Positions 3,697-36,986 of a DNA stretch of 64,000 nt are shown in pieces. Below the pieces are notes generated by a model that was not told where the DNA came from, did no database searches, and saw nothing but the letters and a program-made list of their open reading frames with translations. The DNA comes from Escherichia phage vB_EcoM_ESCO56: the sequence record OM386665.1, one strand, 5' to 3'. Position numbers and translations under genes: made by a program. Position 1 is the stretch's first letter. Each line of letters opens with the position of its first letter.

Positions 3697-3918
3697 TATG
3701 TTTTCTCCAAATGATAAATCTTGTTTCCCCTTAAAAAAGACGGCACGGAGACCGTCAAGGAGAAACCACAATGTACGTCAGAGACATACTGTATAAGTCT
3801 TCCTATAAAGTATAACTCTGTAAAAAAGCCCTGTCTAAAAATACTCTTCGGTAGCGAAAGGAAGAATACTTATAGCAGGGCATTATTATTATTTTAATTG
3901 AGAGAGAGTAAAATAACT

Positions 3919-3994
3919 TGGAGAATCCGAAGGGACTTGAACCCTTATAAACCTGTTTTGCAGACAGGCACATATCCATTTCTGTCACGGATTC
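3919..3994 (-). tRNA. tRNA-Cys (anticodon GCA)
   Basis: Hand-folded: acceptor GAATCCG/CGGATTC, anticodon loop CTGCAAA, T-arm AAGGG-TTCAAGT-CCCTT, discriminator U, encoded CCA. Confidence 0.8.
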
Positions 3995-3999
3995 AAAAT

Positions 4000-4092
4000 T
4001 GGAGGAAGATACCAGACTTGAACTGGTACACCGATTTCTCAGCTACTGGCAGTTTAGCAAACTGCTCCCTTACCTTTTAGGGTTAATCTTCC
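4000..4092 (-). tRNA. tRNA-Ser (anticodon GCU), class II with long variable arm
   Basis: Acceptor GGAAGAT/ATCTTCC, 3-bp D-stem, anticodon stem GCAGT/ACTGC with loop TTGCTAA, about 21-nt variable arm, T-loop TTCAAGT, encoded CCA. Confidence 0.7.
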
Positions 4093-4093
4093 A

Positions 4094-4828
4094 TTATCTT
4101 TGTAATGCGCTCTTCATTTCTGGTGTTGCAATAGTATCAATCACACCAGTTTTACAAGCATCATCAAACCAGTCTGGTAAGATACCTGCTAAGAACCCAT
4201 TGATATTCGTTTTAAGGTACTCTGCAATAAGGGCAGCTTCTTCTTCAATCATCTGCACAACTTCATCTGCATAAGCTGTAATCTTTGAGATACCTTCATT
4301 AATCTTACTAACAGCCTGATTAGCTAAATCAGAAATAGTCTCAAGACCCTCATCAATAGCGTCTTGTAAGTCACTTAACACACCGTTAACACTGTCTAGT
4401 GTGCTGTTAATCATGTCAATAGCTTGCTGACCATACTCTGTAGCAACACCCATAATACCACTAAATGGTGTACAACCAACTTGTTCTCCTGCTGCACCCA
4501 TAACATTGGAGTATCCCTTTGCTACCTGCATACGTGATGAAAACTCATCAATAGACTTTTGACCGTAGTCTGTTAGGGTCTTAGTAGTTGCTGTAGTGCT
4601 TGTAAGGCTTGTTGTAAAACTGTTTAGAAGGACTGTTGTAAGTCCAGCAGCAACAAGCTTCTCCTTCATTGTAGGGTCTGTTACAGAGCTAATAGAGCTT
4701 ACAAGTGATGTAGAGGCAGCTACGGTTCCACCGAGAACTGCTGCACCAGTAATAAGTGGGTTAGAAAACCCTCTACCGGTTTTTAAGAGATTAAAAATCT
4801 CCTTACCTTGTTCTGTCATCTCTTTCAT
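4094..4828 (-). CDS. hypothetical protein (Ser/Thr-rich, coiled-coil C-terminus)
   Basis: Track ORF 4094..4876 overlaps the tRNA at 4845-4923; trimmed to ATG at 4828 (MKEMTEQ...) with AAAGGTG RBS. Confidence 0.55.
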   Translation of the reverse strand: MKEMTEQGKEIFNLLKTGRGFSNPLITGAAVLGGTVAASTSLVSSISSVTDPTMKEKLVAAGLTTVLLNSFTTSLTSTTATTKTLTDYGQKSIDEFSSRMQVAKGYSNVMGAAGEQVGCTPFSGIMGVATEYGQQAIDMINSTLDSVNGVLSDLQDAIDEGLETISDLANQAVSKINEGISKITAYADEVVQMIEEEAALIAEYLKTNINGFLAGILPDWFDDACKTGVIDTIATPEMKSALQR

Positions 4829-4844
4829 TAAGCACCTTTGAAAT

Positions 4845-4923
4845 TGGTACTCCATATCGGATTCGAACCGATACATAACACAGATTTTAAGTCTGGCCTC
4901 TCTGCCAATTGGAGTAATGGAGC
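4845..4923 (-). tRNA. tRNA with anticodon UAA (Leu-decoding) but class-I length
   Basis: Acceptor GCTCCAT/ATGGAGT, Leu-like D-arm (3-bp stem, loop CAATTGGCAGA), anticodon loop CTTAAAA, short variable loop, T-arm ATCGG-TTCGAAT-CCGAT, A73, CCA. Confidence 0.65.
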
Positions 4924-4925
4924 AT

Positions 4926-5001
4926 TGGCGGGGGATGTTGGAATTGAACCAACTTCTTCGATTTCAAAGACCGAGGTTTTAACCTTGTAAACTAATCCCC
5001 T
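4926..5001 (-). tRNA. tRNA-Gln (anticodon UUG)
   Basis: Anticodon stem TCGGT/ATCGA with loop CTTTGAA, T-arm GTTGG-TTCAATT-CCAAC, discriminator G; 1:72 apparently unpaired. Confidence 0.75.
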
Positions 5002-5009
5002 TTAAATCT

Positions 5010-5567
5010 TTACTTTCTCAGTGGATGAATAAAGAATGCCAACATAACTCTTTCCCTTGAGAATGCTCTTTCTTCTGGGACAACGCTTTTTAGTTTCCAT
5101 CCAATATAAATTCTCCAGTAAAACTGTTTACCAAAGATTTTAATTGATGGGATAAAAGCGAATAATCCCCAAGCATTGCTATTCCACATTAGGAGATAAC
5201 CAGTCTGATTATCTTCAGGGTCAGAACTTACGTTGATATTACCTTTCCACTTAGTAACATCTTTTACATCTCTTCCTAATACATGGTAAGAGAAGTTATA
5301 AGCTTTGTTTCTCCAGAGCCATCCAACTCTCTGCATGTAGACACCCAGCTTACCAATCTCTCTAATCTTAGCCCAGCGTTTGACGTGGCCTTCATCACCA
5401 TCAATCGGGTTGTCATAGGTCTCCATCCATCTGAATCCAAAAGGTAGATGTCCTTTCTTCTCGCTGTAGAATGGAACCACGAAAGGTGCTAAGATGACTG
5501 CTAGGGTTGCTGCAAATGGTTCTAGTAAAGCTAGGAAAATCCATGAAGCATACTTCAAATATCTCAT
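5010..5567 (-). CDS. hypothetical protein (hydrophobic N-terminus, probable membrane protein)
   Basis: 185 aa ORF with AAGAGG RBS 9 nt upstream of ATG at 5567; N-terminal hydrophobic stretch WIFLALLEPFAATLAVILAPFVVPF. Confidence 0.6.
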   Translation of the reverse strand: MRYLKYASWIFLALLEPFAATLAVILAPFVVPFYSEKKGHLPFGFRWMETYDNPIDGDEGHVKRWAKIREIGKLGVYMQRVGWLWRNKAYNFSYHVLGRDVKDVTKWKGNINVSSDPEDNQTGYLLMWNSNAWGLFAFIPSIKIFGKQFYWRIYIGWKLKSVVPEERAFSRERVMLAFFIHPLRK

Positions 5568-5586
5568 CTAAATAGCCTCTTAAGAT

Positions 5587-5664
5587 TGGTGTTCCAAGAC
5601 GGATTCGAACCGTCACTAATACAAGGTTTGAGCTTGCATCCTCTGCCAATTGGGATACTGGAAC
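5587..5664 (-). tRNA. tRNA with anticodon CAA (Leu-decoding) but class-I length
   Basis: Acceptor GTTCCAG/TTGGAAC, D-arm TCC-CAATTGGCAGA-GGA, anticodon stem GCAAG/CTTGT with loop CTCAAAC, T-arm GACGG-TTCGAAT-CCGTC, A73, CCA. Confidence 0.65.
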
Positions 5665-5665
5665 A

Positions 5666-5740
5666 TGGTACTCACTAAAGGACTTGAACCTTTTTCTTCA
5701 TCTTGTAAGGGTGATGTTTTACCATATAAACTAAGCGAGT
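5666..5740 (-). tRNA. tRNA-Val (anticodon UAC)
   Basis: Acceptor ACTCGCT/AGTGAGT, D-stem GTTT/AAAC, anticodon loop CTTACAA, T-arm AAAGG-TTCAAGT-CCTTT, A73, CCA. Confidence 0.75.
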
Positions 5741-5835
5741 GTAGAAGAGGTCTGAAGTTGTGCCGCTAACTCAACTCCGTGGAATTTGTTACGGTCTTCA
5801 GTTGACACCAGCGGTCTTTCACTTGACCTCTGAAT

Positions 5836-5912
5836 TGGTGCTGCTCACAGGACTTGAACCTGCATTTCCATCCTTACAAGGGATGTGTAATAGCCAATTA
5901 TACGAAAGCAGC
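5836..5912 (-). tRNA. tRNA-Thr (anticodon UGU)
   Basis: Acceptor GCTGCTT/GAGCAGC, anticodon stem CATCC/GGATG with loop CTTGTAA, T-loop TTCAAGT, A73, CCA. Confidence 0.75.
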
Positions 5913-5919
5913 ATTAATT

Positions 5920-5996
5920 TGGTACACCTAGAGAGATTCGAACTCACACTGAGCAGATTCTAAGTCTGCTGCCTCTACCAGTTGGGCTATAGGTGC
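5920..5996 (-). tRNA. tRNA with anticodon UAG (Leu-decoding) but class-I length
   Basis: Acceptor GCACCTA/TAGGTGT, D-arm GCC-CAACTGGTAGA-GGC, anticodon stem GCAGA/TCTGC with loop CTTAGAA, T-loop TTCGAAT, A73, CCA. Confidence 0.65.
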
Positions 5997-6074
5997 ATTA
6001 AATCTTTTTAGAGAACTTCTAAGAACCTAAGCAACAAGGTTCCACAACAAGCTGTAATAACCTTAGAAGCCCTC

Positions 6075-6250
6075 TAAAAAGACCTAAAAAGGTCTTTGCA
6101 TAGTCTTGTTTAATCCGGTGACTAGAACCTTTGGAGAGCTTGATATTATCTCTTCTCCGTGACACCTGCTAGGTGCTTTATGAGTGTGTACGACAATACA
6201 CGCGGGATACCAAAGCAACACCCTAATGAAGCTTGGCTTTAAATCTTATT
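6075..6250 (-). ncRNA. candidate small structured RNA between tRNA genes, ending in an intrinsic terminator
   Basis: No tRNA fold found. Minus-sense sequence carries hairpins GTGTA-TTGTCG-TACAC, CACC-TAGCA-GGTG, GGAGA..TCTCC, then AGACC-TTTTT-AGGTCT followed by TTTT (6075-6096). 5' end not defined. Confidence 0.3.
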
Positions 6251-6253
6251 AGG

Positions 6254-6341
6254 CGGTAAGTAAAGGAGTCGAACCCTCACCGTATCTCTACAGTGGCAAC
6301 TGTTTTCAAGACAGTTTGGCTACCATTAGCCGCTACCTACC
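6254..6341 (-). tRNA. tRNA-Ser (anticodon UGA), class II
   Basis: Acceptor GGTAGGT/ACTTACC, anticodon stem ACTGT/ACAGT with loop CTTGAAA, about 20-nt variable arm, T-loop TTCGACT, G73; CCA not fully encoded. Confidence 0.7.
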
Positions 6342-6354
6342 CCTAATAAGACTT

Positions 6355-6437
6355 TGGCATGGGACGGAGGAGTTGAACCCCTTTGAAACGGTGTTGGAAG
6401 CCGTTGCTCATGCCTTAGAGTCTTAACATCGTCCCAT
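6355..6437 (-). tRNA. tRNA candidate, anticodon probably CCA (Trp); D region about 7 nt longer than canonical
   Basis: Acceptor ATGGGAC/GTCCCAT, T-loop TTCAACT, G73, CCA; anticodon register inferred from distance to T-loop (loop TTCCAAC); D-arm could not be folded canonically. Confidence 0.4.
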
Positions 6438-6580
6438 ACTATAATTCGAAGCTTACCGTATTATCTCAACACTGTAAAGCCCCTTCTCAGATTATTTACA
6501 TGTTCTGGAAAACATGAGATACAGACCACCTCCCTACAGGAAGACCCGCTTAGGTCGTCTAAGTAATCTGCTAACTAAAT

Positions 6581-6662
6581 TGGTCGAGGCGGCAGGACTC
6601 GAACCCGCATACTCCACTTACTCGGTTAACGTCTGTTTAGAAGACAGATGAGATACGCCCCG
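6581..6662 (-). tRNA. tRNA-like element (acceptor and T-arm present, anticodon-like loop CUUCUAA; no D-arm resolved)
   Basis: Acceptor CGGGGCG/CGCCTCG with one G-U, T-arm GCGGG-TTCGAGT-CCTGC, A73, CCA; only internal hairpin is TCTGT-CTTCTAA-ACAGA placed too far 5' for a canonical tRNA. Confidence 0.3.
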
Positions 6663-6910
6663 TAATTATCTTTAAAGACTCTCTTAGAAAGCCCTTAAAG
6701 ATGCCCACCTTATTAATCATACCGTGGGCTAGTACGCCAAATTCTTTGATGAGGGATTGGAAGACCTCACTGGTGTTTAGCCTATCAAGCTACTGCCAGA
6801 AAAACATTGTCGTTTGCATTTATTTTAAATTTGCAAAATAGACGCTACGCAACGAAAACTAAGGGTACTATAAAGTGGTCACATCACTATTCTGCTACAC
6901 TTCCATTAAA

Positions 6911-7050
6911 TTATCTTTGTAGATAAGCTACCCAGACTTGCTTAAGGTCTGTAGCGATGTGACTTTTTGGGTTTAAATCTAGAATTTACCCTTTCACCCT
7001 TTGTGGTCGCATACTCACAGGTAAGCTTAATAACTTATCTACAAAGATAA
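6911..7050. repeat. long inverted repeat (17-bp perfect arms, about 106-bp spacer) in tRNA-array spacer
   Basis: TTATCTTTGTAGATAAG at 6911-6927 is the exact reverse complement of CTTATCTACAAAGATAA at 7034-7050. Confidence 0.8.
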
Positions 7051-7098
7051 TTACCAGACCGTTGTTTATCATCTTAACTAGATATCTCATAAAGTGTT

Positions 7099-7186
7099 TG
7101 GTGTGCCGTGTAGGAGTCGAACCTACCGAGTCTCAATGACAAGGGATTTACAGTCCCCACCGCTACCATCTACGGGATAACGACAC
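7099..7186 (-). tRNA. tRNA-Tyr (anticodon GUA), class II
   Basis: Acceptor GTGTCGT/ACGGCAC, anticodon stem GGGGA/TCCCT with loop CTGTAAA, about 14-nt variable arm, T-arm GTAGG-TTCGACT-CCTAC, A73, CCA. Confidence 0.8.
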
Positions 7187-7255
7187 ATTTAATTTCTATT
7201 CAGGCTAAGGACTTGCACCTTACAAATCGGTGAGCAATCGCTTCTCTCCTGAATT

Positions 7256-7332
7256 TGGCGGTTAGTCAGGGATTCGAACCCTGTGCCATTCGCTTAACAG
7301 GCGACCGCACATACCTTATGTGCTTCCTAACC
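7256..7332 (-). tRNA. tRNA-Asn (anticodon GUU)
   Basis: D-stem GCAC/GTGC, anticodon loop CTGTTAA, T-arm CAGGG-TTCGAAT-CCCTG, G73, CCA. Confidence 0.8.
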
Positions 7333-7416
7333 ATGTTTAGTATTACCAGACCGTATCTTTCAATTTTTCCGCTAAAAATTTAATAAACATTGCTGTAAAC
7401 GGTCTTCTGTAAAATT

Positions 7417-7493
7417 TGGAGGCGGGTGCAGGAGTCGAACCTGCCGATACCATGCTAATGAGACATGTGAGACGCCCTTTCTCTATACCCGCA
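7417..7493 (-). tRNA. tRNA with anticodon CAU (Met, fMet or Ile2)
   Basis: Anticodon stem CATGT/GCATG with loop CTCATTA (position 37 is U, unusual), T-arm GCAGG-TTCGACT-CCTGC, CCA. Confidence 0.65.
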
Positions 7494-7623
7494 ATTCTTA
7501 ATGACCAGACCAAATCTCTTCTTTGTCCGATTTACCTTCAGATGAATAAGATTAAGTTTGCTGTAATTGGTCTTCTGTCAAAACTGGCGTTCCAGAAGGG
7601 ATTTGTCTACTGGAACATTAATT

Positions 7624-7700
7624 TGGTCTCTGTTGGAGGACTTGAACCTCCGGCCTTACCGCCCCAAACGGAACGCTCTACCAAGCTGAGCTAAACAGAG
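7624..7700 (-). tRNA. tRNA-Pro (anticodon UGG)
   Basis: Acceptor CTCTGTT/AACAGAG, D-stem GCTC/GAGC, anticodon loop TTTGGGG (G37), T-arm GGAGG-TTCAAGT-CCTCC, A73, CCA. Confidence 0.8.
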
Positions 7701-7817
7701 ATAAACTTTTTAAACTCTATGTAACCACTTTAACACTATTTTTTAGTGATTGTCAAGAACTTTTTTAAAATATTTTCAGTATCTTAGAAAAGCTCTCGTT
7801 TCGTTTCTATGTAGAAC

Positions 7818-7864: not shown

Positions 7865-9280
7865 TTACCAGATATAACGGTCAACCATTACTGCTTTGAG
7901 CATTACGCTGATTGGGTCAAACTTCTCACCACCAAGTAGAGCTTTTAAAGTGGCTGGAGAGAAACCAGATACCATTGCTACACCGTTATCCTTAACAGAC
8001 ACTTCGCAAGTACCATTACGGTTTGCTAAGTACCAGAATACCAGTTGTGGCATCTCATATCCAGCTTTTTTGTACTTACTCTGAATTTCTTCAAAGTTTG
8101 TACGACCGTTAGCTCCATCAACCTGATTGAACTCCATATCGGAGAAGATGATAAGCTTACTTGGCATATCTTTCTGAGTCAAGTTATTTCTTTTACCTGT
8201 CTCAAGAATGCGGTCAAAAGCTGCTTGTAAGTTAGTTGAGCCATATTCAACGTGTCGCATCACCTGACGATGACGGTTTCGTAAATCACCACTCAGTTCG
8301 ATGAAGTGAGGGTTTGTTGAATAAACCATTAACTCATTCTTAAAGCAACCTGTATTGCGTTCTGCTACATACAATGCAAGTGAAACACCAATATCAAGAG
8401 CAGTAATTGAACCAAAATTCACCCAAGACATTGAGCATGAAACATCAGACATACATAGGATGTTTTCACCTTCTGCCATCCAGTTTGGTAGTGCCTTCCA
8501 CTGCTCATTAGCAACATCTGCATTACCATACTTAACAGATTTAATCACATCGTATGGGTAAACAGCACCAGCATTAATCTTAGCCTCACCCTTTGATAAG
8601 GACTCGATGTAGGCTTTGTAGCGCTCTCCATCTTTACGGTTAAACAGCTTTTGGTAACGTGCAGCAGCAAGTGAAGGAACCTTACTGTAGTCAATCTTAC
8701 CAAACTCGTTAGCAGAGATTTTTTGCTCAACTGTATCAGATAATGCAGACAACAGTGCGCGGTACTCTTTCTCACTCAAGTTGGCAAACTTGCAGAAACG
8801 TTTTACAAACTGCTTATGACGTGGTTTGACTCGTGGTAACCACTTGGCTGCCAAACCTGCTGTTGCAGGGTCTAGTAATGCTGCTTCTAAATGCTTGAAG
8901 GCATCTGTCTCAAAACGAGTGCCTACGAAGATTTTGAAGTCATCAAAACGACCAAGTTCTGCAATCTTATCCATAATGCGAAGAACCTGTGTAGGCTCTA
9001 AAACTTTGTCTTCAATCGCTTGAAGCAAAACAGTTCTGAAGGCTTTACGCTCACCCATACCTTCTCGTACATCTCGCATGTGCAGTAAAATACGAACTGC
9101 AACATCAACATCCTCACGCAAAGCTTTGTAGAACAGGTCTGGTAAGATTTCTACGTTGCTACGGCTTGAACCAGCAGCTTTGTAAAAGTCTACAAGGGCA
9201 GACATTGATGAAGTATGGTTTACAGCACCATTTTCAGTTCGACCTGCATGAAGGTGCGCATGTTTAAATAACTCGCTCAT
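7865..9280 (-). CDS. vWA-domain protein with MIDAS motif; N-terminal region possibly TROVE-like (Ro60-like)
   Basis: 471 aa; C-terminal hydrophobic strand then DVSCS (DxSxS MIDAS) within ILCMSDVSCSMSW; N-terminal alpha-rich region with TENGA...ALVDFY. Ro60-like call is from recalled family features, not a search. Confidence 0.5.
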   Translation of the reverse strand: MSELFKHAHLHAGRTENGAVNHTSSMSALVDFYKAAGSSRSNVEILPDLFYKALREDVDVAVRILLHMRDVREGMGERKAFRTVLLQAIEDKVLEPTQVLRIMDKIAELGRFDDFKIFVGTRFETDAFKHLEAALLDPATAGLAAKWLPRVKPRHKQFVKRFCKFANLSEKEYRALLSALSDTVEQKISANEFGKIDYSKVPSLAAARYQKLFNRKDGERYKAYIESLSKGEAKINAGAVYPYDVIKSVKYGNADVANEQWKALPNWMAEGENILCMSDVSCSMSWVNFGSITALDIGVSLALYVAERNTGCFKNELMVYSTNPHFIELSGDLRNRHRQVMRHVEYGSTNLQAAFDRILETGKRNNLTQKDMPSKLIIFSDMEFNQVDGANGRTNFEEIQSKYKKAGYEMPQLVFWYLANRNGTCEVSVKDNGVAMVSGFSPATLKALLGGEKFDPISVMLKAVMVDRYIW

Positions 9281-36405: not shown

Positions 36406-36726
36406 TTACTGAGCCACTTTCAAGATGCTTGTGAATGAAATCTCACTCTCATCCATAAACTCTTTTGCTTCTCCAGTAACTTTTACAAAGTTATCTAGGC
36501 AGATAATCTTCTTATCTTTCTTGCTATAGGTTAGCTTAACCTTTTCAATATCTTTCTTAGAGCTTTCCTCTTCATTAAAGAGCTTTACAGCTTCTTTGAA
36601 TGGGAGGTATGAGCCATCATCGTCGCTAATAAAACCTGTACCACAATAGTAGAAGTTATATTCTTTAGCCATAAACTGGCACAGTACGAAAATCTGTAAT
36701 TTGCGAGTGTTATAAACTTTGCTCAT
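36406..36726 (-). CDS. hypothetical protein
   Basis: 106 aa ORF. Confidence 0.5.
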   Translation of the reverse strand: MSKVYNTRKLQIFVLCQFMAKEYNFYYCGTGFISDDDGSYLPFKEAVKLFNEEESSKKDIEKVKLTYSKKDKKIICLDNFVKVTGEAKEFMDESEISFTSILKVAQ

Positions 36727-36728
36727 GA

Positions 36729-36986
36729 TTATTTAGCCTTCTTATTACGTTTATGGTTACGAGCTTTCTTAGCTGCTCGTTTAATAGCTGCTGCACCAGA
36801 CGGACGGTGGGCTTGTTTCTTACCACCTTTATCACGGCCTACATAGGTACTTTTCATAAACTCATTAGCCAGCTTCTCCTCCATCTTAAAGTTCTGCATA
36901 AGATGAGTCACATCAACGCCAGTGAGCATACCTAATGAAGCTAGTGCTGCTTTTACTTTTGATTTAAAGCTATTCCAGATTCCCAT
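36729..36986 (-). CDS. hypothetical basic protein
   Basis: 85 aa; Lys/Arg-rich C-terminus. Confidence 0.5.
   Translation of the reverse strand: MGIWNSFKSKVKAALASLGMLTGVDVTHLMQNFKMEEKLANEFMKSTYVGRDKGGKKQAHRPSGAAAIKRAAKKARNHKRNKKAK

Follow-up and report, generated by a model that had tools for sequence, protein, structure and literature searches.

The long variable arm is the textbook hallmark of bacterial tRNA-Leu, and three genes with leucine anticodons in Escherichia phage vB_EcoM_ESCO56 (OM386665.1) do without it. Are these compact tRNA-Leu that rely on A73 and D-arm identity elements, or are they charged differently, the two possibilities raised in a preliminary description of the sequence? 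The window analysed here, a stretch of 64,000 nucleotides, belongs to a Felixounavirus (Felix O1-type; E. coli/Salmonella phages) and shows 99% identity to Escherichia phage vB_EcoM_ESCO50. The tRNA-Leu label of the three genes is already present in GenBank records.

Three short-armed tRNA-Leu genes in a phage tRNA array

ARAGORN called tRNA-Leu(UAA) at 4845-4923, tRNA-Leu(CAA) at 5587-5664 and tRNA-Leu(UAG) at 5920-5996, all on the minus strand, which are the positions and anticodons first read from the letters. The Rfam tRNA covariance model (RF00005, searched with Infernal) placed all three genes in the same register, with the four helices in canonical order and scores of 47.5, 44.0 and 57.3 bits for UAA, CAA and UAG (E-values 3.9e-8, 3.4e-7 and 7.6e-11), above the gathering score of 29. 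Relative to this model, only 1-4 nt were inserted in the variable region. The agreement of ARAGORN with Infernal and the small insertions exclude a hidden long arm or a shifted anticodon register; neither program found the other register or the mis-assigned arm on which the preliminary description could have foundered.

Counted to position 73, the tRNAs are 76, 75 and 74 nt long (UAA, CAA, UAG), so the 76-79 nt given originally holds for the lengths with CCA (79, 78 and 77 nt). The variable loop is short, as claimed, although its length is 7 nt (GUUAUGU), 6 nt (AUUAGU) and 5 nt (UCAGU), respectively, rather than 5-6 nt throughout. In class II tRNA-Leu the variable arm exceeds 10 nt and folds into a stem-loop; with 5-7 nt, the three tRNAs are therefore not classed as class II. 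They have the features of type I tRNA-Leu, namely a leucine anticodon and a variable loop of about 5 nt including nucleotide 48: their loops of 5-7 nt end in U48. All three also carry A9 and C13, a type I signature that was derived in the present analysis and is not a published definition.

A position-by-position parse (for tRNA-Leu(UAA) against E. coli leuZ) found A73, an encoded CCA, a 3-bp D stem and an 11-nt D loop in all three, confirming the discriminator and the Leu-type D arm reported at the outset. The D loop reads CAAUUGGCAGA in tRNA-Leu(UAA) and tRNA-Leu(CAA) and CAACUGGUAGA in tRNA-Leu(UAG). Further positions in tRNA-Leu(UAA) are A14, A15, G18G19, A20a, U48 and G1:U72, with a C27.U43 mismatch in the anticodon stem. 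tRNA-Leu(CAA) has the anticodon loop CUCAAAC (C38), and tRNA-Leu(UAG) has G1:U72, a U50.U64 mismatch in the T stem and A37, where the host tRNA has G37. By their anticodons, UAA reads UUA/UUG, CAA reads UUG and UAG reads CUA/CUG. There is neither a stop anticodon nor a mismatch between body and anticodon, as a suppressor or recoding tRNA would have; a Leu body is fitted with a Leu anticodon.

The genes lie in a tRNA array at 3919..7700 on the minus strand, as delineated by ARAGORN, by Pfam searches of the embedded ORFs and by 99% identity to the annotated array of ESCO50. In transcription order it comprises Pro, Met, Asn, Tyr, a tRNA-like sequence (6584-6662), Ser(UGA), Leu(UAG), Thr, Val, Leu(CAA), an ORF with DUF7338, Gln, Leu(UAA), an ORF with DUF7217, Ser(GCU) and Cys, and each tRNA-Leu gene is separated by 1-7 nt from an adjoining tRNA. 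Upstream of the array lies a large ORF that Pfam assigns to DUF2828/DUF7788, not to a synthetase. A consensus scan found two sigma-70-like promoter matches (7846-7818 and 7756-7727, minus strand), both with a perfect TTGACA, directly upstream of the first tRNA, and a weak terminator-like hairpin followed by a T run (3739..3756, minus strand) downstream of tRNA-Cys, the last. Since the totals of such promoter and terminator sites are not above chance (the shuffled expectation for promoter sites), only the positions of these matches are suggestive.

Long arms had been described for the array's Ser and Tyr tRNAs, and they are indeed kept: among the genes called by ARAGORN, the variable arm measures 21 nt in tRNA-Ser(GCU) (4000..4092), 20 nt in tRNA-Ser(UGA) (6252..6341) and 15 nt in tRNA-Tyr(GUA) (7099..7186), all on the minus strand. 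The same holds across viral loci with a type I tRNA-Leu, where all 22 Ser and all 10 Tyr tRNAs have a variable region of at least 11 nt. Loss of the arm in Leu only, across phage arrays, is as expected from which synthetases require it.

Leucine identity elements are retained without the arm

The published identity set of E. coli LeuRS comprises A73, U8-A14, A15-U48, G18G19, A20a and U54-A58, and neither the long arm nor the anticodon is part of it (PMC9976931). The parse recovered this set in full in all three window tRNAs. A73, U8, A14, A15 and U48 are present in each; G18G19 occupies its Leu-specific place in an 11-nt D loop on a 3-bp stem, with A20a, in the register of E. coli leuZ, leuX and leuW; and the T loop is UUCGAAU in each, providing U54-A58 and the C56 of the G19-C56 elbow contact. 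The combination of a Leu-type D arm, A73 and U48 was found in 32 of 45 type I and 114 of 144 type II tRNA-Leu. It occurred in 9 of 554 other short-loop tRNAs (1.6%) and in none of 103 non-Leu long-arm tRNAs, chiefly Ser and Tyr. In the homologues from the related phage Sf14, Leu is the top tRNAscan-SE isotype for all three tRNAs (67.4, 49.1 and 60.2), with a narrow margin for the UAG homologue (Leu 67.4, Ile2 65.7, Lys 63.4; PMC12482277). The word "variable" is absent from that Sf14 tRNA paper.

These data bear on the possibility that a synthetase other than LeuRS charges the tRNAs, with leucine codons partly recoded during infection. The Lys and Ile2 scores close to Leu for the Sf14 UAG homologue would fit this, as would a similar D-loop sequence in some non-Leu tRNAs, for example Lys(UUU). 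Lys and Ile synthetases recognise the anticodon, and UAA, CAA and UAG suit neither of them. Moreover, a D arm built of a 3-bp stem and an 11-nt loop is specific to Leu, Leu scores highest for all three Sf14 homologues, and the Pfam matches of window ORFs show that conservation of the phage proteins holds with the standard code. We consider recoding of this kind highly improbable. The alternative favoured in turn, that of compact Leu tRNAs with A73 and D-arm and core identity elements, fits all the sequence evidence, and charging with leucine would follow from it.

Conservation and covariation of the three genes

The three genes are at least 96% conserved in about 250 Ounavirinae records. Identity of at least 99% was found for tRNA-Leu(UAA) in 215 of the 263 phage records with a match and for tRNA-Leu(CAA) in 159 of 291, and tRNA-Leu(UAG) has contiguous homologues across many phage groups. 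The surrounding 4 kb is mostly 90-97% identical, and the tRNA content of the array differs between near-identical phages.

Among 41 distinct viral type I tRNA-Leu, positions A14, G18, G19, A35, G53, T54, T55, C56, A58, C61 and A73 are invariant, and U8, A15, A20a, A22 and U48 are conserved in at least 90%. U33 is invariant together with A35, in a canonical anticodon loop. An alignment of 41 homologues supports a cloverleaf whose D stem has 3 bp: 96.8% of cells are paired, and changes on both sides are seen in 19 of the 20 pairs. The covariation score over all four helices was 1.059, against 0.14-0.20 in slid controls, and was reached by none of 500 shuffles. Single-sequence folding was uninformative (z = -1.7, -2.2 and -0.3, with a non-cloverleaf minimum-energy fold for tRNA-Leu(UAA)), and the structural argument thus rests on covariation.

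Could the genes be decaying pseudogenes, that is, long-armed tRNA-Leu genes that have suffered a deletion? Mismatches are present in one anticodon stem and one T stem, and the variable tRNA content of the array would also suit decay. Against this, the genes are near-invariant in some 250 genomes while most of their surroundings are not, covariation is strong across lineages, and the length of the viral variable region is sharply bimodal (5-7 nt against 9-26 nt) and coupled to A9/C13, which is unlike ragged deletions. Conservation and covariation effectively refute decay, and its probability is negligible.

Distribution of type I tRNA-Leu in phages and bacteria

The type I form was found in phages of Pseudomonadota, Bacillota, Cyanobacteriota, Bacteroidota and Actinomycetota, as well as in Actinomycetota chromosomes. 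By the signature defined here, viral type I tRNA-Leu have A9 in 28 of 42 and C13 in 34 of 42, and chromosomal type I copies of Actinomycetota have A9 in 97 and C13 in 111 of 116, whereas viral type II tRNA-Leu have G9 in 127 and G or A at position 13 in 137 of 143. We also considered that arm loss relaxes the C2-G71 antideterminant against SerRS; the difference is too weak to support this, with G2:C71 in 14 of 42 type I and 31 of 143 type II tRNAs. The hosts of type I Leu phages, where checked, have long-armed tRNA-Leu only. As a rule for all bacteria, the long arm assumed in the preliminary description is too broad: many Actinomycetota chromosomes carry short-armed tRNA-Leu, with a characterised example in Streptomyces coelicolor (PMC6614811). 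The phage tRNA-Leu are thus a further case of a known form, and our full-text literature search did not find short-armed tRNA-Leu described in phages.

The host isoacceptors with identical anticodons are E. coli leuZ (UAA), leuX (CAA) and leuW (UAG). They share with the window tRNAs the D-arm register (a 3-bp stem and an 11-nt loop xAAyyGGyAGA), A14, A15, G18G19, A20a, U48, U54/U55/C56/A58 and A73, and leuZ shares G1:U72 with tRNA-Leu(UAA) and tRNA-Leu(UAG). They differ in their variable region, which forms a stem and measures 13-15 nt (5-7 nt in the phage tRNAs), in G instead of A at position 9, in G or A instead of C at position 13 and, for leuW, in G37 against the A37 of tRNA-Leu(UAG). Outside the variable loop and anticodon, identity to leuZ, leuX and leuW is only 0.42-0.62, and BLAST of the three tRNAs against 5,426 E. 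coli genomes gave no match; we reject a recent origin from host tRNA-Leu on both grounds.

Phage T5 encodes a tRNA-Leu(UAG) for the same codon and host, also within a large tRNA array. That tRNA is an ordinary type II molecule: it is 85 nt long, its variable arm has 13 nt, and positions 9 and 13 are both G. It is rejected as a precedent for a short-armed tRNA-Leu. The viral tRNA-Leu that serves recoded E. coli as its leucine adaptor was set aside as well; it derives from the T5-like phage OSYSP, is probably type II and provides no direct evidence here.

The loss of the arm may itself be an adaptation: host defence nucleases or toxins that bind or cleave the long arm of class II tRNAs would miss short-armed tRNA-Leu, as would a phage-induced attack on host tRNA-Leu. 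Attack directed at the arm of class II tRNAs exists, and the type I form recurs in unrelated phage lineages while the hosts checked have only the long-armed form. Yet no anti-phage system targeting the tRNA-Leu arm was found reported in our literature search, and T5 retains a type II tRNA-Leu. Type I architecture is, moreover, a normal chromosomal gene in many Actinomycetota, so that a phage-specific explanation is not required. We regard an adaptive loss as rather unlikely on present evidence; it concerns why the arm went and would be compatible with charging by leucine.

Comparison with known armless tRNA-Leu

In the one biochemical study of bacterial short-armed tRNA-Leu, which calls the form rare, the type I tRNA-Leu of S. 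coelicolor is a proven substrate of bacterial LeuRS (Fan et al. 2019, PMC6614811). The same study reports that S. coelicolor type I tRNA-Leu(CAA) was not charged by E. coli LeuRS (EcLeuRS), which it describes as charging type II only, and that the armless form needs a LeuRS with an adapted leucine-specific domain, shown for Streptomyces enzymes; in earlier work, as cited there, the leucine-specific domain of EcLeuRS prefers a large variable region.

S. coelicolor tRNA-Leu(CAA) and the window tRNAs have in common a Leu anticodon, a variable loop of the 5-nt class and a Leu-type D arm, and in both settings short-armed and long-armed tRNAs stand side by side in one cytoplasm. Chromosomal type I copies of Actinomycetota commonly carry the A9/C13 signature too, and Actinomycetota copies are among the nearest neighbours of the window tRNAs (0.70-0.82 identity outside the variable loop and anticodon). 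Unlike in S. coelicolor, the window tRNAs are phage-borne and the host's own tRNA-Leu genes, as far as retrieved, are long-armed. The S. coelicolor tRNA has C48, and A73 is not an identity element in it, whereas the window tRNAs have U48 and A73 is invariant in the phage type I form. Because U48 is required by the E. coli enzyme, its failure to charge the Streptomyces tRNA may not transfer to the phage tRNAs.

That failure is also the point in favour of tRNAs that stay unaminoacylated and act as decoys, sponges or processing elements instead of decoding. What is conserved, however, is the acceptor end together with the identity positions for LeuRS (A73, A15, U48, G18G19 and A20a), the canonical anticodon loop is kept with its invariant U33 and A35, and three distinct Leu anticodons are maintained. 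Conservation at these places is what decoding needs and a decoy does not, and a non-decoding role appears quite improbable.

Two other systems are comparable in lacking the long arm. According to the account in PMC9976931 of Larkin et al. (2002), E. coli LeuRS charges minimal tRNA-Leu that lack the variable and anticodon arms, provided that A73 and intact D/T-loop tertiary contacts are present. The window tRNAs retain exactly the elements that this account names; they are natural, while the Larkin substrates were engineered truncations of host tRNA tested in vitro. Animal mitochondrial tRNA-Leu(UUR) likewise has a short variable loop, and A73 and A14 serve as its identity elements (PMC9976931), but it is served by a dedicated mitochondrial LeuRS, is loose and rich in mismatches and gives no sign of kinship.

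Proposed function of the phage tRNA-Leu

Taken from the sequence evidence, the three genes probably encode functional type I isoacceptors that read the Leu codons UUA, UUG and CUA and that the host LeuRS charges with no need for the arm. The tRNA-Leu genes would share the transcription of the phage tRNA array and yield CCA-ended tRNAs after processing, the host leucyl-tRNA synthetase would load all three with leucine, and in translation they would decode UUA, UUG and CUA, plus further CUN codons through wobble at U34. The arm would be dispensable for Leu and not for Ser and Tyr, whose bacterial synthetases require it, which would account for why only the array's Leu tRNAs lost it. A phage-encoded synthetase was rejected as the charging enzyme: no aminoacyl-tRNA synthetase is annotated in one complete Felixounavirus genome, and the large ORF ahead of the array matches DUF2828/DUF7788.

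In the host, UUA, UUG and CUA are each served by single-copy tRNA genes (leuZ, leuX and leuW). In the window ORFs (38.9% GC), TTA makes up 25% of leucine codons, TTG 14%, CTA 11% and CTG only 15%; this AT-rich phage uses UUA, UUG and CUA more than its host does. In Sf14, the RSCU values for TTA and CTA likewise exceed those of the host (PMC12482277).

Implications

Hundreds of genomes of coliphages and Salmonella phages share these conserved genes. The tRNAs have given up the arm and still carry the E. coli leucine identity set in full, which implies that enterobacterial LeuRS accepts natural armless substrates. If so, E. coli LeuRS would charge natural type I tRNA-Leu, against the current statement that it is confined to type II. 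Phage arrays from at least five host phyla, in which the arm was lost in Leu and never in Ser or Tyr, also amount to a natural experiment on identity rules. The finding counsels caution over isotype and class assumptions in phage tRNA annotation, and compact Leu-accepting scaffolds may help genetic-code engineering. Should host defence nucleases or toxins use the arm as a handle, or should a purge of host class II tRNAs set off by the phage do so, Leu would be the sole class II tRNA able to shed it and keep its synthetase. The type I tRNA-Leu of Felix O1-like phages, and of many others, would then serve as devices against host defence or for insulation. This idea of arm evasion would tie phage tRNAs to recently discovered defence systems whose cleavage site is the tRNA variable loop.

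A short variable loop in three tRNA-Leu genes

ARAGORN called 13 tRNA genes on the minus strand of the window at 3919-7700, including tRNA-Leu(UAA) (4845-4923), tRNA-Leu(CAA) (5587-5664) and tRNA-Leu(UAG) (5920-5996), all three on that strand, which scored 47.5, 44.0 and 57.3 bits with the Rfam tRNA covariance model (gathering score 29 bits). A preliminary description had assigned these genes a short variable loop, and this was confirmed by ARAGORN, the Rfam model and a position-by-position parse, with variable regions of 7, 6 and 5 nt, respectively (5-7 nt rather than the 5-6 nt proposed); the proposed lengths of 76-79 nt hold only with the CCA counted in. Neither a different anticodon register nor an overlooked long arm was found, since the Rfam model and ARAGORN agree on the register for all three and the model inserts only 1-4 nt in the variable region. 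The parse also showed an encoded CCA and the D arm previously described (3-bp stem, 11-nt loop) in each gene. As had also been noted, tRNA-Ser(GCU), tRNA-Ser(UGA) and tRNA-Tyr(GUA) of the same array keep their long arms (21, 20 and 15 nt).

Just ahead of the first tRNA are two promoter-like sites, each with a perfect -35 hexamer, and the last tRNA is followed by a terminator-like hairpin, an arrangement weakly consistent with a single operon. Directly upstream of the array, on the same strand, is a 471-aa ORF (7865-9280, minus strand) matching DUF2828 (E = 1e-29) and DUF7788 (E = 5e-43); it is annotated as an RNA-binding protein in Salmonella phage FG1m and as hypothetical elsewhere, and a role in tRNA handling is conceivable. 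Two protein ORFs lie within the array (5010-5567 and 4094-4876, both minus strand). One is a DUF7338 protein, a holin by annotation in some records; for the DUF7217 ORF, the longest frame with an ATG start shares 32 nt with the 3' end of tRNA-Leu(UAA), and the true start may be farther downstream because the Pfam match begins only at residue 24.

Leucine identity elements are retained

The phage tRNAs were compared with leuZ (UAA), leuX (CAA) and leuW (UAG) of E. coli K-12, which are 85-87 nt long with variable regions of 13-15 nt. The D-arm register is exactly the same, with a 3-bp stem and the loop xAAyyGGyAGA (A14, A15, G18G19, A20a), and both sets share U48 as the last variable nucleotide, the T loop UUCRAxU (U54, U55, C56, A58) and A73. 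Leucine identity in E. coli depends on A73, the A15-U48 trans-Levitt pair and G18G19 with A20a, together with the G18:U55, G19-C56 and U54:A58 contacts (Giegé and Eriani review, PMC9976931), and this whole set is present in all three phage tRNAs. The first alternative of the preliminary description, compact Leu tRNAs relying on A73 and D-arm identity elements, would therefore hold. Differences from the host were seen at position 9 (A in the phage, G in the host) and position 13 (C versus G/A). Outside the variable loop and anticodon, the phage tRNAs were closest to other short-armed tRNA-Leu, viral and actinobacterial (0.70-0.92), against 0.42-0.62 for E. coli tRNA-Leu.

Leucine was also the top tRNAscan-SE isotype in a 2025 study of the related Mooglevirus Sf14, with scores of 67.4 for Leu_TAG, 49.1 for Leu_CAA and 60.2 for Leu_TAA; all three were marked consistent, although the Leu_TAG margin was small (Ile2 65.7, Lys 63.4), and the paper makes no mention of the variable arm (PMC12482277). 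In sister phages of Sf14, the counterparts of the window genes are 96-100% identical.

The anticodon loop of phage Leu(UAG) is CUUAGAA, with A37 where leuW has G37; at position 38, phage Leu(CAA) has C and leuX A. G37 of leuW is the m1G37 site and is methylated. The A36A37A38 motif, a determinant for TrmL (PMC9976931), is disrupted by C38. Because of these two substitutions, modification of the phage tRNAs may be unlike that of their host counterparts.

Short-armed tRNA-Leu across phages and bacteria

Searching with the UAG tRNA by blast found contiguous short-armed tRNA-Leu in cultured phages whose hosts are Mycobacterium, Streptomyces, Gordonia, Pseudomonas, Cronobacter, Klebsiella, Enterococcus and Prochlorococcus, as well as in a crAss-like phage. 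The representatives checked (Cronobacter phage CR3, two Pseudomonas phage lineages, Erwinia phage phiEa21-4, a Bixzunavirus, Enterococcus phage Bop, cyanophage P-RSM6 and crAss cr111_1) all had Leu tRNAs of 73-76 nt, and wherever Ser or Tyr tRNAs fell within the regions fetched from these phages they were long-armed. In vB_OCPT_Bop (locus L255, 225-468), a long-armed Leu(UAA) with a 16-nt variable region adjoins a short-armed Leu(UAG) with 6 nt, next to a phage-encoded tmRNA; the two architectures can coexist in one array.

Uncultured viral contigs of IMG/VR were scanned for a Leu D loop, Leu anticodon and T loop at any spacing (at least 120 loci). Among the matches listed, 18 of 127 had a 5-nt variable region and the remainder 9-19 nt; ARAGORN called 29 short and 143 long Leu tRNAs on these loci. 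Pooled with the window and the phage loci fetched from GenBank, the listed IMG/VR loci gave sharply bimodal lengths (5-7 nt in 42 genes, 9-26 nt in 144). The same pattern at short spacing only, applied to bacterial genomes (at least 120 loci), fell on Actinomycetota chromosomes in 63 of the 80 matches listed, mostly as single tRNA genes, in agreement with the type I tRNA-Leu(CAA) already described from Streptomyces coelicolor (PMC6614811) and with M. tuberculosis, where only three of the tRNA-Leu species are long-looped (PMC11541572). Such single chromosomal genes, with A9/C13, are common in Nocardia, Rhodococcus, Gordonia, Mycobacterium, Corynebacterium, Arthrobacter and Bifidobacterium, among others, and a few with the same signature belong to dense tRNA arrays of MAGs from other phyla. 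Judged by these matches, short-armed tRNA-Leu is a class across phages and bacteria, not a single oddity, and its published description as a bacterial rarity looks too narrow.

The short form carries a signature of its own, A9/C13. A9 occurs in 28/42 viral and 97/116 genomic short-armed Leu and C13 in 34/42 and 111/116, whereas long-armed Leu have G9 in 127/143 and G or A at position 13 in 137/143. Its origin would be either common descent with horizontal spread or repeated convergence, sequences of this length being too short to choose.

Conservation and covariation

In an alignment of 41 distinct viral short-armed Leu tRNAs, A14, G18, G19, U33, A35, G53, T54, T55, C56, A58, C61 and A73 were invariant and U8, A15, A20a, A22 and U48 at least 90% conserved. 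The cloverleaf with a 3-bp D stem gave standard pairs in 96.8% of cells and both-side changes at 19/20 pairs; its covariation score of 1.059 fell to 0.14-0.20 with partners slid by 1-3 columns and was reached by 0/500 shuffles. The Leu-type D arm, A73 and U48 occurred together in 32/45 short and 114/144 long Leu tRNAs, against 9/554 short-loop tRNAs of other isotypes and 0/103 long-armed tRNAs that are not Leu (chiefly Ser and Tyr). Pseudogenes, an uncharged RNA or decoy, and tRNAs charged by a synthetase other than LeuRS all fit poorly with this conservation and covariation.

Arm loss was confined to Leu: at viral loci with short-armed Leu, the variable region was at least 11 nt in 22/22 Ser and 10/10 Tyr tRNAs. 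This would be expected if aminoacylation constrains architecture, the long arm not being needed by an E. coli-type LeuRS. That arm loss shields the tRNA from an arm-directed defence, an idea compatible with leucine charging, is improbable because the same architecture is ordinary in Actinomycetota; a literature search also found no system targeting the tRNA-Leu arm.

Variation of the tRNA array among relatives

Over its 4-kb tRNA region, the window matches Escherichia phage vB_EcoM_ESCO50 at 99% identity and many Felix O1-like phages of E. coli and Salmonella (genus Felixounavirus) at 94-98%; in the GenBank records of these phages the three genes already bear a tRNA-Leu annotation. Across about 250 Ounavirinae records, identity is at least 96% for each gene, and Leu(UAA) reaches at least 99% in 215 of 263 matching records; the surrounding region is mostly 90-97% identical. 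Blast against 5,426 complete E. coli genomes gave no match for any of the three.

tRNA content differs between near-identical phages. Compared with window 3800-7800, the Bas63 array (locus L253, 31800-37000) additionally holds Glu, Asp, Lys(UUU), a second Met, Ile, canonical Arg(UCU), Lys(CUU), Ala, Gly, Gln(CUG), His and Phe, and in ESCO50 Ala and Gly still separate Leu(UAG) from Thr. The array is an insertion/deletion hot spot. In FG1m (species Felixounavirus Si3; 4999-5076 of locus L250), a hybrid tRNA gene has a 5' part from Leu(CAA) and a 3' part from Leu(UAA), joined inside the T-arm GGTTCGAATCCG common to both parents, with one resulting mismatch in the acceptor stem and one in the T stem; this points to recombination between the two short-armed genes.

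A tRNA-like gene at 6584-6662 (minus strand) scored 33.4 bits with the Rfam model, without an ARAGORN call. It has an acceptor stem (CGGGGCG/CGCCTCG), A73, CCA and an anticodon-type hairpin with the loop UUCUAAA (UCU), lacks a D arm and has about 22 nt ahead of the T arm. Bas63 carries a canonical tRNA-Arg(UCU) in this slot; about 120 Felixounavirus records contain the odd allele, 95-100% conserved and without annotation. The window tRNA-Ser(GCU) (4000-4092, minus strand) is 93 nt, long-armed and has U73; its Bas63 copy (36706-36798) is identical save for G34 to U, giving the anticodon UCU, and is annotated as tRNA-Arg(AGA). Because SerRS ignores the anticodon, this Ser-type body might insert Ser at AGA codons.

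Codon supply and charging

The window has a GC content of 38.9%. Of the Leu codons in 53 non-overlapping ORFs, 25% are TTA, 14% TTG and 11% CTA, with CTG at only 15%. RSCU for TTA and CTA is higher in Sf14 than in its host (PMC12482277). The phage would therefore supply these three Leu isoacceptors, each encoded as a single gene by the host. Charging would have to be by a host enzyme, because a complete Felixounavirus genome carries no annotated synthetase. The main caveat comes from Fan et al. (2019), in whose work E. coli LeuRS failed to charge S. coelicolor type I tRNA-Leu(CAA), leading them to conclude that EcLeuRS charges type II only (PMC6614811). We think that this result would not transfer to the phage tRNAs, because the S. 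coelicolor tRNA has C48 and its A73 is not an identity element, whereas in the phage tRNAs U48 is present and A73 invariant. A viral tRNA-Leu from a T5-like phage inserts leucine in recoded E. coli and is probably long-armed; T5 tRNA-Leu is ordinary (85 nt), unlike those of the window.

The short-armed Leu genes are real and the compact tRNA-Leu reading is upheld. Their annotation as tRNA-Leu is already known, and short-armed bacterial tRNA-Leu has biochemical precedent. The significance lies in a form that is common in phage tRNA arrays across host phyla, in an arm loss specific to Leu, and in its presence in coliphages whose host synthetase reportedly rejects it.
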